59,172 bases of DNA, taken from assembly GCF_006345805.1 (NCBI RefSeq), contig NW_021832982.1:1-59172 (forward strand), written 5' to 3'. Position 1 is the first letter of the stretch. Every line of letters begins with the position of its first letter. The translations under genes and the position numbers were made by a program. Source of the stretch: Octopus sinensis. Lineage: Eukaryota. Of the stretch, positions 3,053 through 40,578 are shown in pieces. The notes beneath the pieces were generated by a model. That model saw only the letters and a list, made by a program, of their open reading frames with translations. It had not been told where the DNA came from and searched no databases.

Positions 3053-3321
3053 ACAGTTCTATATTTAAGAGATGAAGAATTATGTACAGTATTTACATTA
3101 TTTACACTCGACGGATATTTGTCCTCATCTTGTTTGTTGTTAACACAACGTTTCGGTTGATATACCCTCTAGCCTTCTTCAGATGCCTTGGGGAAATTTC
3201 GAACCTGGGTTCTCATTCCTAAGGTATTTTTCGATGTTATCATTATTGTTACTGTTCAGGTCACTGCTTGGAATCGAACTCGGAATCTTGAGGTTAGTAG
3301 CCTGCGCTCTTAACACTACGC
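3053..3321 (-). mobile_element. tRNA-derived SINE with hammerhead-like motif, copy 1
   Basis: Minus strand reads GGCGTAGTGTTAAGAGCGCAGGCTACTAACCTCAAGATTCCGAGTTCGATTCC (A/B boxes), then the body, then CTGAAGAA..CCGAAACGTT. Homologous to 3503-3712. Confidence 0.8.
3142..3187 (-). ncRNA. Minimal type I hammerhead-like motif
   Basis: GGCAU-CUGAAGA-A-GGCUA..CAACC-GAA-ACGU-U-GUGUU. Core boxes are present; stem I relies on wobble pairs and stem II is degenerate. Confidence 0.6.
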
Positions 3322-3502
3322 CGTATGTATACACACACGCACACACACACACACACACACACACACACACACACAAACACACACACATACACACACACAC
3401 ACACACACACACATATATGTATGTATGTATGTATGTATATGTATAAAACGATTAAGATAGAAATAAAACAGGATAAGCATATATGTGTCTCTGTGACTGT
3501 GT

Positions 3503-3712
3503 GTGTAGTGGTTAAGAGCGCGGGCTACTAACCCCAAAATACCGAGTTCAATTCCAAGCAGTGACAATAATAATAATATCGAAAAATACCTTAGGAATGA
3601 GAACCCAGGTTCGAAATTTCCCCAAGGCACCTGAAGAAAGCTGGAGAGTAAATCAACCGAAACGTTGTGCTAGCAACAAACAAGAGGAGGACAAATATCT
3701 ATCAAATGTAAA
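3503..3712 (+). mobile_element. tRNA-derived SINE with hammerhead-like motif, copy 2
   Basis: GTGTAGTGGTTAAGAGCGCGGGCTACTAACCCC..GAGTTCAATTCC head; same body as copy 1. The tail is interrupted by a Helitron. Confidence 0.8.
3626..3671 (+). ncRNA. Minimal type I hammerhead-like motif
   Basis: GGCAC-CUGAAGA-A-AGCUG..CAACC-GAA-ACGU-U-GUGCU. Stem I GGCAC/GUGCU pairs. Confidence 0.62.
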
Positions 3713-4219
3713 TCTATATATATAAAACTGTAGTTGTATGAGTGTCTGTCCCCTTCGATTTAGATTCCATAACTCCTCACATTTTGCGGTTGCGTGCAGT
3801 TTAACCAAATTCGGGTATCTTATAGTCGTGATTCATATCGAGCCCGTCTGGCTATTAGCGCGCGTCAACGATGAGTCTACGATTTTAAAAATAATTTAAC
3901 ATCATTTTTTATTCCATTTTAATGCATAATTTCGTGTGTGTTCGATGGCGGCGGAGTTGGCGTCCACGCTCACAGCTGCACCTGTTGCTTCTCCCCCTCC
4001 CTCCCTCGTGAAGCTGTGGGGAAGGGAGTGTAAAGAAATCAACGTCGTAAAGCGTTGTCAAGGAGACCAGCGTTCTTTTAGACAACGACTTCATGGCTTG
4101 AAGACACCAAACAGAAATGGCTAAGAAAGCCCGAATTGGCATAAGGGAAGTAACTCTCTAAAAATGCTTATATAGTTATTTCCCTTACAAACCCGAGCAA
4201 CGCCGGGCGATACTGCTAG
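3713..4219 (+). mobile_element. Non-autonomous Helitron
   Basis: 5' TC terminus; 3' hairpin CCCGAGCAACGCCGGG then CTAG. Inserted between A and T with no TSD; the SINE tail resumes at 4220. Confidence 0.88.
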
Positions 4220-4865
4220 TAATGTATAAAAATGTTTTGATATTTTGTGTATTGTCAAAGCATAATCAATTTATTGGAGATATATTTTAACAACAAAATC
4301 TTATGTGGATCCCCGCTTGAAAATCACTGATCCATATGATCGTTCGAGCTTTCAGGCGTGGCAGTAAAAATGTTTCTCAAATAACATCATGGATAATCGT
4401 CATCCAAATAGAGACACGAGAGATACGTAATGTAATCCAGCGCTTCAGAAAGAAACGGGATGGTTGTCAAGGAATGATTTCGATCATAGCAACAATGTTG
4501 ACGTCATAAAAATCACTTCCATCCATACTTATCAACTAACTTGTAGCAACCTCATCATCATCATCATCATCCTCATCATCACCACATTTCTACCATCAAA
4601 TCTATCACTTACCACCAACATCGTCGCTGCAGTTTAACAATGACACCAATAATATCATCTCCGCACCATCACGTACCTCTACCGTCAAATGCATCGTCGC
4701 CGCCACCAACTCCATTATTACAATCATCATCGTCATCATCATCATCATCATCATCATCATCATCCTCATCACCACCACCACCACCACCACCACCACCACC
4801 ACCACCACCACCACCACCACTATTAATACAAGTGATTCTAATCCACGTACAAGGCCGGGGATGAG

Positions 4866-36898: not shown

Positions 36899-37284
36899 CT
36901 CTCTTTACTCTTTTATTTGTTTCAGTCATTTGACTGTGGCCATGATGGAGCACCGCCTTTAAGTCGAAGAAATCGACCCCAAGACTTATTCTTTGTAAGC
37001 CTAGTACTTATTCTCTCGGTCTCTTTTGCTGAACCGCTAAGTTACGGGGGACGTAAACACACCCGTATCGGTTGTCAAGCGATGTTGGGGGATAAACACA
37101 GACACACACATACATATATACGACGGGCTTCTTTTAGTTTCCGTCTACCAAATCTACTCACAAGGCTTTGATCGGCCCGAGGCTATAGTAGAAAACACTT
37201 GCCCAAGGTGCCACGCAGTGGGACTGAACCCAGAACCATGTGGTTGGTAAGCAAGTTACTTACCACACAGCCACTCCTTCGCCT
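36899..37284 (-). mobile_element. SINE family A, full length
   Basis: Complete head, core and tail. Confidence 0.88.
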
Positions 37285-40200
37285 ATATTTTGCAGATGCC
37301 TATTTTGCAGAGAGGGTCAGTAACTCATTAATATATAATCGTTATTCAAGAGGTCCTTCCGTTTTTTAAAAAGTAGGGTGTGGTATTTGACAGATAGACA
37401 CGACTGCTATTTCTATCAGATCCCGGACAGTCACTTATAGGCTCTTCTTACTAATATCTGGGTATATGATTGTGTAGATGCATTTATTTATTATGTATGT
37501 ATCAGTGTTTTTTTCCCCCTTCCAAGTATCTATTCAGAAATAGCATAGCCAAGTAATCATCAGTATTTCAGATCGCACAATAGAGATTGAACGAATGGTT
37601 CACATAGAAACAATGATAAAGACGCAATGACTCTTGGATCAATATTATCAACTTCTGAATCTAGGAGAAGAAAATATTTCAATAAATACCATCGATTTAT
37701 GCCTGTTCCAGCCAGTCTGTATTCTTGTAGAGAAGTTAAAGCTGTGCAACATATAACTGAAGAAAAATAAAGTGGGTAGGGTAGGAGCGGAAGATTTATG
37801 GCTGATAACAAATAACTTAAAAGATGGAAAATAAAATCACTGTTAAATACACATACACGACACACACACATTCACATATAGACATACATATGCATACACA
37901 AACACACACACATATTCTTATATATATATATATATTCATATACATGCATGCATACATAGATATATAAATATATATATATATATATATGCATATACATACA
38001 TTAATATATATATATGCATATATATATATATATATAATACACACGTATTACTCATACAAACATATATATATATATATATTATATGTATATATATATATTA
38101 TATGTGTATATATAAATATATATATATATATATATATATATATATATAGTCATTTCCACATTCACCTCCAAACCCACTATCCCGTTCACTTAGTCATATG
38201 CGGCGTATATGTATGTATATATGCATGTATGTATGTATGTATGTATGTGTGTGTACGTATGTATGTAAACATATCTGATTAAATGTACAGGCGCATTCGC
38301 GGAACTCATACACAAACATATACATGGACATACGCACTTCTACTGCCAATATATAACGTCCATGTACAAACATACGGAACTACACACTTACATATGTAAA
38401 TGTATACATACTTATCTACAAATATACATACATTAATACAGAAATACCCATCTCTGTCTCTGTCTCTTTCTCACACACTACTCAAATATATACATACATG
38501 TATGAATACACATACACATAAAAGTGCGCATACAAACGCATACATACATAATAGACGTAAGTGCATGGAAACAAATACATATATATAACCAGACGTGCAT
38601 AGAAACATACTCACATATACATAAATATACGTAACATAAAAGGAGCTGGTTTGTTACAATGCCATAAAATGAATTTAATGTCTGTTGTGTTTATTTTTGT
38701 TGTTACTTAGCCCCGGGTCAAACATGATTGAGCAGACCAATGATCAAAGTCAATCCAAGCCGGCCCATTTAGCCTATTAACGAAAGTATGCGATTACATT
38801 ATCTAATGGTCTGATTTGAAGGACATTTGGTTGCTATGTCGAACAGTTTGGATGCCCGAATACAAACTCTCGTACTGGTTCATAGAGTATGGAGGGGAAA
38901 CTGAACTGCAAGAAAAAATTTCTTGGTAAACCAAGATCAAGTTTCATCTCTTTTAAACTAAATGTCTTATCTGTGTGTTTTATCTTTCTGTCGACTGTTC
39001 TTGCTTCTCTCTAAGGGCAACAGGACCAATCACAAGTCGGTATTGATTCAATTGATTGTTTCCCCTTTCAAATTCGAAGTCATGTGTCATTTGTGTGAAT
39101 TTTTTTTTTATCTCAAATACTTACATTCATGGTTGTATTCTTAAGGCTACTGCAGGCTAGTGTTTCGTATTTATGCATCACTACTGCATATACCGACGTG
39201 CCTGTTACCAAGTATCACTTCAACGACCGAGATAACTCTAAATTGATATCATAGGGTAGTGCAGTTCAAATTCAGTTCAAACTGACGCGTGAAGTTTGAA
39301 ATGGAGAGTGACAATCCCATTGCATCCCTTGACAGTGAAAATTGGAACTTTTCATGTATACTCTTCTCTTTGTGCTTAACTGGCACCTTTACGATCTAAC
39401 AAGATTACAAGACTAATCATGGCGCCACATTCTACGTCAGTTCTAATTTGAAGCTGAGTTTAAAGAGAATATTTCATGTTTTCTGGTAAGGTATGTTTTG
39501 GCGCAGATGTGTTGCCGTCGTTGATTCGACGCAGACTTATTTGACATAAGACGTTTTAATGTCTCTCGTTCGTCTCTCTCTCTCCCTCCCTCCCCTCTCT
39601 CTCTCCCTCCCTCCCCCTCTCTCTCTCCCTCCCTCCCCCCCTCTCTCTCTGTTTATTTGTGTGAGTAAATTTTTCTTTAAGTGTAAGAGAGGAAAAGTGT
39701 TTATGTCGATCGCGTTTGATTAATAAATTGTAAAGGCTTTCTCTCAACCTTTCTCTCAACCTTTCTCTCAACCTTTCTCTCTCTCTCTCTCTCTCTCTCC
39801 CTCCCCTCTTTCTCTCTCTCCACCCCCTATCTTTCTAGTTCTCTTTCTTTCCCTATATGTTTATTTCTGCACGTCGCCTGCGTATGTATATGTTCGCTTC
39901 CAGTGCCAAAAAGCACTGTTATAGTTATACCAGAACTAATCCACTAATACTATGAAAACTACAAACATTTTAAAATAGTCCCCCCCCATCACCTTATCAC
40001 AAATCAATTGTACAATGTTAAAGCAGATTTAACGAAATTGTAGTTTAACTATGTATTTATTACTAATATTTGATTTCCCATATTTTCTGTCTCTTACCGG
40101 TTTCTGTCATTATACTACGACCATACTGGGACACCGCCTTAAAAGGTTTAGTTGAACAAATCGACTCTAGTGTTTATTTTTAAGTTTTGGTTCTTATTCT

Positions 40201-40424
40201 ATCGGTTTCTTTGGCTGAATCTCTCATTTACGGGGACGTAAATAAACTAACACTGATTGTCAAGTGGTAGTTCTGGAAAAACACAAACACCATGTCACAC
40301 ACGTACACACACACACGTACATACACACACATACTCACACACGCACGCACGCACGCACGCACGCACACACACACACACACACACACAAACGCGCTCACAC
40401 ACGTGTAACTATACACGTACTGCT

Positions 40425-40578
40425 GACATTTTTTCCCTCTTTTCCTTTCCGACGAAGAGCTATGCTCGAAACGTCAAATACTCTCTCCTTTTACTGAGCA
40501 TCAAACTAATACATTCATTGTGCACGTCCTCTTGTTGCCTGTTATTGTTAATTTTATTGTTCGTTCATTTGCTTTGAG
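40425..40578 (+). mobile_element. Diverged solo Penelope pLTR with hammerhead motif (40444-40480)
   Basis: TTT-CCGACGA-A-GAGC-TAT-GCTC-GAAACGT-C-AAA, followed by CTGAGCATCAAACTAATACA as in the other pLTRs. Confidence 0.65.

Follow-up and report, generated by a model that had tools for sequence, protein, structure and literature searches.

Hammerhead-like motifs in an Octopus sinensis contig and the Penelope-like element families that carry them

Introduction

A contig of 59,172 nucleotides (nt) from Octopus sinensis (NW_021832982.1, assembly GCF_006345805.1) contains nine motifs that resemble the hammerhead ribozyme (HHR), and their presence raises the question of which elements carry them and whether any of them cleaves. 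The contig, an entire unplaced contig of a 2.7-Gb genome, is referred to below as the window. An earlier reading of its letters, the original prediction, had assigned the motifs to a single Penelope-centred system. The explanation advanced here, in which we have high confidence as a whole (the family identities, the prediction that most copies do not cut, the insertion mechanism, and a part played by RNA polymerase III (Pol III) in one family), is that the nine motifs are minimal type I hammerheads in the pseudo-long terminal repeats (pLTRs) of three families of Penelope-like elements (PLEs), of Penelope/Poseidon, Neptune, and Hydra type. The copies would have been left behind as solo, truncated, or head-to-head pLTRs, and most of them are predicted to be non-cutting in place.

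Structure and grouping of the motifs

All nine hammerhead-like strings are present at the coordinates and on the strands given below, and all parse as type I HHR-like folds. The predicted count of three families is upheld by self-BLAST, which groups the motifs as F1 (two motifs), F2 (five, of which that at 40444 is from a sister subfamily), and F3 (two).

3142 to 3187, minus strand: F1 minimal HHR with a canonical core; only 2 bp left of stem II, site GUU
3626 to 3671, plus strand: F1 minimal HHR with a canonical core; 10.1-11.1 closing pair disrupted, cut predicted at 3666/3667
5727 to 5764, minus strand: F2 HHR with A6U
13425 to 13475, minus strand: F3 HHR; canonical core, U10.1-U11.1 plus 3 bp in stem II, site GUA
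13472 to 13522, plus strand: F3 HHR copy, broken, with A15.1 deleted
27056 to 27093, plus strand: F2 HHR in the pLTR of the element at 24970 to 27190; A6U, one stem II mismatch
28370 to 28406, plus strand: F2 HHR, decayed; A6U plus two further changes
28527 to 28563, plus strand: F2 HHR identical to the intact family pattern, with A6U
40444 to 40480, plus strand: sister-subfamily HHR with U4C, A6 kept

A full canonical core is found in only three of the nine (3142, 3626, and 13425), the remaining cores being four with A6U, one with U4C, and one from which A15.1 has been lost. Among the families, the canonical pattern CUGANGA...GAAA...NUH is found in F1 and F3 and is absent from F2 (A6U) and from most of the sister family (U4C). 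The extra base after A9, stem II, the palindromic helix III, and stem I are all present in the F1 and F2 family sequences. The minus-strand F3 motif at 13425 has a real 3-bp helix III and is sequestered in a predicted fold-back hairpin. Searches of the genome with exact family patterns give 12,086 matches for F2, 2,508 (34-mers) for F1, 559 (34-mers) for F3, and 8,757 for the sister family of 40444, with zero matches to the reversed-pattern controls. An HHR location within the pLTR is confirmed for F1, F2, and F3; for the sister family, no link to an open reading frame (ORF) was found in 12 loci.

Identity of the three element families

The F1 copies had been taken for a ribozyme-bearing short interspersed element (SINE). 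Judged by its coding content, F1 is instead the pLTR of an autonomous Penelope/Poseidon element, whose solo copies may amplify in a SINE-like manner. The window holds one head-to-head pair of F1 copies.

3056 to 3327, minus strand: F1 solo pLTR, left arm of the pair (model +3 to +266), with tRNA-like head, AAT run, ORF start, HHR, and 3′ end with tail
3503 to 3714, plus strand: F1 solo pLTR, right arm, no tail (model +9 to +232)
about 3503 to 3565, plus strand: tRNA-like head of the right arm, the ORF start codon lying at 3597 to 3599

Among loci selected by reverse transcriptase (RT), 16 of 30 run from the RT through the F1 pLTR in one match, three of the 16 being near-identical. The shared sequence upstream of the F1 head encodes a GIY-YIG end with a stop ∼30 nt before the head, and the protein combines an RT containing DKG with a C-terminal GIY-YIG domain that has CCHH, lacks a CX2-5CxxC linker, and reads YKG for YIG. 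An ATG at +115 of the pLTR starts a reading frame that crosses both the hammerhead and the tail; at locus L333 the tail frame continues directly into the ORF N terminus, an arrangement that we liken to that of PAc, the Anolis Poseidon element (PMC11167929). A protein search with the F1 pLTR peptide gives one gene-model match, an O. sinensis protein at 86%, and a search with a degenerate RT-motif pattern found nothing. Assignment of all clades by the motifs listed in PMC8557442, rather than by a tree, counts against the firmness of these placements.

The HHR-selected F1 loci have an inverted arm in 47 of 78 cases. Where both 3′ ends of a pair could be seen, 32 of 39 combine a tailed arm with a short one (P = 7e-5), a pattern with which the window pair agrees. 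The pLTR, a tail of 30–40 nt, and inverted 5′ copies are all found for F1, and tandem copies amount to only a few cases among the 78 loci. Target-site duplications of 10–13 bp flank three of 30 F1 copies (L039, L045, and L036). A free tRNA SINE mobilized by a PLE was considered and dropped when loose ends in RNA reads led to the parent element; the search for HHR copies with foreign upstream sequence had turned up nothing beyond truncated and inverted copies (30 loci of 50 matches). A tRNA SINE is a non-autonomous unit separate from its partner, and the F1 unit is the pLTR of the coding element itself. A non-LTR retrozyme was rejected for F1 and F3 alike, head-to-tail tandem units being few, among the 73 F3 loci as well, and most copies solo or head-to-head.

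F2 is, on the same kind of evidence, a Neptune pLTR. Its longer copies carry DKG, a CX4CxxC linker, a CCHH GIY-YIG domain, and (TA)n ends, and the Neptune element has weak Pfam matches to RVT_1 and GIY-YIG, below the cut-off. As predicted, the window contains a Penelope-related element: a PLE ending in a motif-bearing pLTR occupies 24970 to 27190, in a copy that is 5′-truncated and frameshifted. The predicted solo pLTRs are present as well.

5641 to 5790, minus strand: F2 (Neptune) solo pLTR with the A6U HHR at 5727 to 5764
24970 to 27190, plus strand: 5′-truncated, frameshifted Neptune PLE comprising the C-terminal part of the RT, CX4CxxC linker, GIY-YIG, 3′ untranslated region, and pLTR, ending in (TA)n
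28346 to 28490, plus strand: F2 solo pLTR of another subfamily, HHR at 28370 to 28406
28512 to 28635, plus strand: F2 solo pLTR, HHR at 28527 to 28563
40421 to 40560, plus strand: solo pLTR of the sister subfamily, HHR at 40444 to 40480

F3, predicted to be a distinct fold-back element, is by its sequence a young Hydra pLTR and not a fold-back family; the window copy is a head-to-head inverted insertion of this Hydra PLE.

13340 to 13559, both strands: F3 (Hydra) pLTR inserted in (TA)n as a head-to-head fold-back, with the 6-bp palindrome at 13471 to 13476 as its centre; the tail is on the long, minus-strand arm

All 40 scored F3 matches are 100% identical over 131 nt. At L064 and L131 the pLTR runs into a Hydra-type ORF, and translations of L131 and L133 show RWR, DKT, CxCX5C, no CCHH, CxxC/CxH, and (TA)n, the features given for the Hydra clade in PMC8557442. 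The 73 F3 loci drawn from the first 100 matches include 25 head-to-head and no tail-to-tail arrangements, 14 having arms within 20 nt of each other, and in F3 pairs one arm has the longer 3′ end. A miniature inverted-repeat or other fold-back DNA transposon was rejected for F3 on the grounds of unequal arms, with a tail on one of them, a variable centre, and the discovery of an RT-encoding parent. Hydra-type ORFs distinct from F3 occur at L069, L087, L144, and L353, so that the genome contains several Hydra families.

Proposed mechanism of insertion

The observed family identities, the link of pLTRs to RT/GIY-YIG ORFs, the two alternative 3′ ends, the head-to-head inversions, and the copy numbers are compatible with a mechanism of nicking, two-site priming, and microhomology joining, which we infer. 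The PLE protein, both RT and endonuclease, would bind uncleaved pLTR RNA and nick both strands of the target, and cDNA synthesis would be primed at two internal sites in the pLTR RNA. Each of the two cDNAs would terminate close to the 5′ end of the RNA or at a short palindrome, and microhomology would then join them, yielding solo pLTRs and head-to-head pairs with one arm tailed and one untailed, an outcome that would cover all nine motifs. Cleavage would be unneeded for insertion; it would require two copies to pair via the palindromic helix III, probably with help from protein. If insertion proceeds without cleavage, A6U and U4C cores could therefore spread with the fold retained, which might serve as a dimerization or binding element.

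Cleavage and the variant cores

Published work offers several precedents for hammerheads that are not simple self-cleaving units. Minimal PLE hammerheads show no activity as monomers and weak activity as dimers (PMC4209133), and the PAc HHR cuts only with its own protein, leaves no RNA ends, and is dispensable for insertion, PAc being able to insert with a dead HHR (PMC11167929). In the octopus genome, a test for fossil junctions of cleaved RNA, which covered F1, gave no excess at the cut site (one junction vs eight and two at control offsets). Three raw RNA runs from a related organism contain 1,240–1,836 F2 and 5,668–7,801 F1 reads in ∼12 million each, and no pile-up of ends was seen at the cut sites in these runs, which are unstranded and fragmented, were read at ∼6%, and give low power. 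No window copy looks able to cut alone in place. These results suggest, as the best reading, that cleavage is both conditional and dispensable.

The variant cores also bear on dispensability. The F2 core CUGUNGA has 12,086 exact matches against 117 for the pattern with A6, and this massive amplification of a core-mutant hammerhead suggests that cutting is dispensable. In 16 F2 copies selected by their flanks, 11 had a parsable motif, and all 11 have U6, which is also kept in >90% of F2 RNA reads from the related organism. In the sister family, U4C was counted by hand in 70 of the first 100 matches, and some of the copies with U4 may reflect CpG decay.

A contrary reading is that the A6U and U4C hammerheads are active, being protein-assisted, dimer-dependent, and selected for cleavage, with A6U a new tolerated natural core. 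Several findings speak for it. N7 takes all four bases among A6U copies, position 17 is A or U among the first 100 copies listed and G in only 66 of 11,187, and stem I covaries in the sister copies; free N7, G17 avoidance, and stem I covariation form the pattern expected of selection for cleavage and weigh against dispensability. Protein-assisted activity of A6U is possible because N7 varies and G17 is avoided, and there is a precedent in PAc (PMC11167929). The motif is, moreover, the main part matched at ≥85% by RNA reads of another organism, and an identical 25-nt motif occurs in sister subfamilies whose flanks have a median identity of 72–81%, although these were selected by the motif. Natural A6C and U4C variants are reported to keep low activity (PMC3088659). 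Against this, complete mutagenesis found that single mutants of CUGA have low activity that second mutations do not rescue (PMC9901934), the restriction of position 17 to A or U in the first 100 copies is explicable by a few founder subfamilies without selection, and other boxes of the pLTR are conserved too. On balance, activity of these cores appears doubtful, and conditional, dispensable cleavage is preferred.

The F3 copies present a different case. A U10.1-U11.1 opening of stem II is a known active HHR variant (PMC3088659). RNA transcribed through the window copy is predicted to fold into a ∼90-bp hairpin (-127 to -139 kcal/mol) in which the ribozyme is masked. Young Hydra fold-backs of this kind, with near-perfect hairpins, would more likely serve as double-stranded RNA substrates, for editing or silencing, than as ribozymes.

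A tRNA-like head and RNA polymerase III

The F1 pLTR opens with a tRNA-derived head whose A and B boxes match the Pol III consensus, and a run of four T residues (T4) is the Pol III terminator. Under the relaxed -ps80 setting, ARAGORN folds 11 of 49 F1 heads as tRNA, compared with none of 49 shuffles. Copy 5′ ends at the 78 loci fall at -25 to +20 in 36 cases, downstream in 32, and further upstream in 10, which corresponds to 0.026 per nt at the head vs 0.004 per nt on each side; some of those counted downstream are probably artefacts caused by the AAT run. The F1 sense strand has no T4 run in 2,689 nt, against 5.3 expected under a mononucleotide null (P = 0.005), as judged from a majority strand of 12 copies, the first 348 nt of which have a depth below 3. 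Nine of the 12 single copies are likewise without any T4 run. Neptune and Hydra copies have five to six T4 runs each, and 12 other long ORFs together have 35 vs 36.4 expected. Pol III transcription is suggested because 5′ ends pile up at the A/B-box head and T4 runs are absent; from the sequence, F1 probably uses Pol III in some form.

The extent of such transcription may be pictured in two ways, to each of which we assign somewhat less than an even chance. Pol III might make short F1 pLTR RNAs only. It could equally transcribe the whole F1 coding unit end to end: a captured tRNA-type promoter would start the pLTR, the 2.7-kb sense strand would have been purged of oligo-T terminators, internal initiation by the RT would remove the need for a poly(A) end, and every solo pLTR would be a self-propagating SINE born inside its own partner. 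A solo F1 pLTR that retains its boxes would act as an additional source of Pol III transcripts and would therefore be SINE-like without being a separate element.

Several results weigh against Pol III use. At default settings ARAGORN finds no tRNA in the 49 F1 heads, nor any in the window, and the Rfam tRNA model has no match in six F1 loci at E<=0.5. At single-base resolution the 5′-end peak is broad and moderate, with 7, 10, 26, and 5 ends at -7, -6, +1, and +8; GG microhomology appears to be involved in many of the head junctions, and a small hairpin lies at the position of the peak. Stricter nulls lower the T4 expectation to 2.6 (dinucleotide, P = 0.053), 2.3 (synonymous-codon, P = 0.064), or 1.5 (trinucleotide, P = 0.13), and the strand is also without G4 (none vs 3.4 expected).

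Such points lend themselves to a reading in which the tRNA-like head is an inert relic of an old tRNA or SINE insertion, F1 is an ordinary Pol II PLE, and 5′ ends cluster only because the small hairpin makes the RT pause and fold back. Fold-backs through the hairpin, seen in six of 30 heads parsed, fit this account, as do the breadth of the peak, which is probably microhomology-driven, the borderline T4 depletion under codon-aware nulls, and the requirement of the ORF for a translatable RNA. The promoter in the Penelope pLTR of Drosophila virilis is of a Pol II nature. That Penelope is reported to use an internal pLTR promoter (PMC8557442). However, most short copies start at the head, both boxes are kept, several unfolded copies begin at -6/-7, on the upstream side of the hairpin, and not at the downstream base expected for a stall, and, of the ORFs tested, F1 alone is short of T runs. 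An inert head is consequently the less favored explanation and, in our estimate, an unlikely one, and Pol III use is retained as the working interpretation. If correct, a tRNA-type promoter in a PLE pLTR would offer a direct route to SINE-like hammerhead units such as Sm-alpha, and an F1 ORF made entirely by Pol III would be a rare Pol III messenger needing cap-independent translation.

Copy density and the single-system model

The nine motifs had been described as a possibly typical density. Sixty evenly spaced 10-kb stretches from large contigs (600 kb) contain 20 motif-covering copies of the window families (14 F2, three F1, and three F3), or 33 per Mb (95% confidence interval 20–51). This corresponds to 2.0 per 59 kb, so the window, with nine (P = 2e-4), is ∼4.6-fold denser than the sample rather than typical. 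Extrapolation to the genome gives ∼55,000–140,000 motif-bearing copies. In the same 600-kb sample, there are at least three further hammerhead families with a longer helix III (L150 and L191; L160, L170, and L172; and L171, minus, 395).

The original prediction had combined these motifs into one Penelope-centred system with a free ribozyme SINE, a distinct fold-back element, and many working cleavage sites in intronic transcripts. Short F1 units running from head to tail do dominate, 68 of the 78 HHR-selected loci not reaching upstream of -25; F1 and F2 both occur in RNA reads of the related organism; and the extrapolated copy number is high. The relation to Penelope also stands, but as three unrelated PLE clades and not one system: the best RT-fragment identities are 29% for Neptune vs Poseidon and 22% for Neptune vs Hydra, and F1 and F3 are physically the 3′ ends of an autonomous PLE and of a Hydra PLE. 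The element-identity part of the model is thereby largely refuted. The extrapolation to many latent self-cleavage sites is weak, most motifs being dimer-dependent, decayed, or core-substituted, and one canonical copy being buried in its predicted ∼90-bp hairpin; monomeric minimal HHRs failed to cleave in vitro (PMC4209133), a depletion of vertebrate retrozymes from introns has been reported (bioRxiv 2026.07.22.740005), and neither the genomic junctions nor the unstranded, low-power RNA reads show ends at cut sites. Together with the excess of the window over the genome sample, this makes the single-system model very improbable, and the three-family explanation is retained.

The idea that the motifs are chance matches in repeat-rich sequence, which could appeal to a strict descriptor recovering only one of the nine and to an Rfam scan of the window with no hammerhead family among 142 matches at E<=1, has a negligible probability in view of the shuffled controls, the hundreds to thousands of exact copies with zero controls, and the agreement in pLTR position with published PLE HHRs. 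The Rfam result indicates rather that the motifs lie outside the Rfam models. The descriptor recovers three of nine with one core mismatch allowed and five of nine when relaxed, and its three levels average 0, 0.16, and 0.28 matches on 25 block shuffles. A second descriptor gives three matches in the window vs none in 100 window shuffles, and 15 in the 600 kb vs none in each of 10 shuffles, so that motif counts exceed the shuffled background in window and genome sample alike.

Relation to known systems

Much of what the window contains is already in print: hammerheads in PLE pLTRs, inverted insertions, tails, and octopus Hydra elements. As originally stated, the nine-motif observation repeats a 2014 result in a new genome. 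The minimal PLE HHRs of PMC4209133 share with the window motifs the type I fold, the extra base between 9 and 10.1, G10.1-C11.1, palindromic 15.2-16.2, thousands of solo copies, and opposite-strand pairs 100–700 bp apart. They differ in that the largest octopus family has a fixed A6U and its sister mostly U4C, neither of which was found in the accessible part of that report, and the searched supplement (one file lay outside the search) has no octopus entry. PAc has in common with F1 an ORF that starts inside the pLTR near the HHR, a cut site within the ORF, two RT start sites that give the tail, and no RNA ends at the cut site; no counterpart of the tRNA-like A/B-box head or of the T4-free sense strand was found in the available text (PMC11167929).

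Neptune-clade PLEs agree with F2 in DKG, a CX2-5CxxC linker, CCHH GIY-YIG, (TA)n insertion, and an HHR in the pLTR, and F2 is distinguished by amplification of a core-variant HHR to at least 12,086 exact copies. The Hydra clade, including Hydra-1_Obim, shares with F3 an RWK-like motif, DKT, CxCX5C, absence of CCHH, CxxC/CxH, (TA)n, and an HHR with a real helix III (PMC8557442). F3 is nevertheless a different, younger family, with a protein and HHR that differ from the Hydra-1_Obim entries seen (PMC8557442); its stem II opens with U-U, and tight fold-backs are frequent.

The combination of a Pol III promoter with a hammerhead is known from the schistosome Sm-alpha (PMC6765202, PMC8490949). Sm-alpha/Sj-alpha (PMC6765202) and animal non-LTR retrozymes (PMC7229834; bioRxiv 2026.07.22.740005; see also PMC6962438) resemble F1 in having a Pol III-type promoter upstream of a type I HHR, but those are non-coding tandem repeats, whereas F1 forms the terminal repeat of an autonomous element with coding capacity and is mostly solo or head-to-head. 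A PLE origin has been argued for retrozymes (bioRxiv 2026.07.22.740005).

No report of a PLE with a tRNA-type pLTR promoter was found in the literature searched, repeat databases lying outside the search. Another terminal repeat with a captured Pol III promoter is that of Cassandra, a terminal-repeat retrotransposon in miniature, which is a non-autonomous LTR element with a 5S-derived Pol III promoter in its LTR; the F1 promoter differs in being of tRNA type and in an autonomous PLE. No report of an A6U PLE hammerhead was found either, although Lunse et al. 2017, which reportedly lists PLE hammerhead variants, and repeat databases lay outside the search and may hold A6U or the families described here. 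The A6U and U4C families, beside families with canonical cores in the same genome, provide natural wild-type/mutant pairs for studying PLE hammerhead function.

Other features of the window

An abundant repeat of ∼400 nt at 24540–24930 (plus strand), with inverted fragments at 24296–24382 and 3,736 first-look candidates, shows PLE-like inversions and is possibly a Naiad-type or other PLE end; it was not found in the supplement of PMC8557442 as available. It was rejected as a tenth motif, having a conserved hammerhead half-core without a stem II/GAAA partner. A weak Rfam tRNA match on the minus strand at 20121–20190 (25 bits, E 0.66) is probably the head of another SINE. Frames on the minus strand at 27517–27942 and 44754–45134, which gave no Pfam match, are presumably fragments resembling mariner-type transposases. 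A fragment of an RT like that of a long interspersed element and a tandem array share one stretch (34121–35330 and 36279–36770). An uninterrupted frame of 292 codons on the minus strand at 51229–52104 encodes a MARCH-like RINGv domain (E 1e-14) and may be a single-exon gene or a retrocopy.

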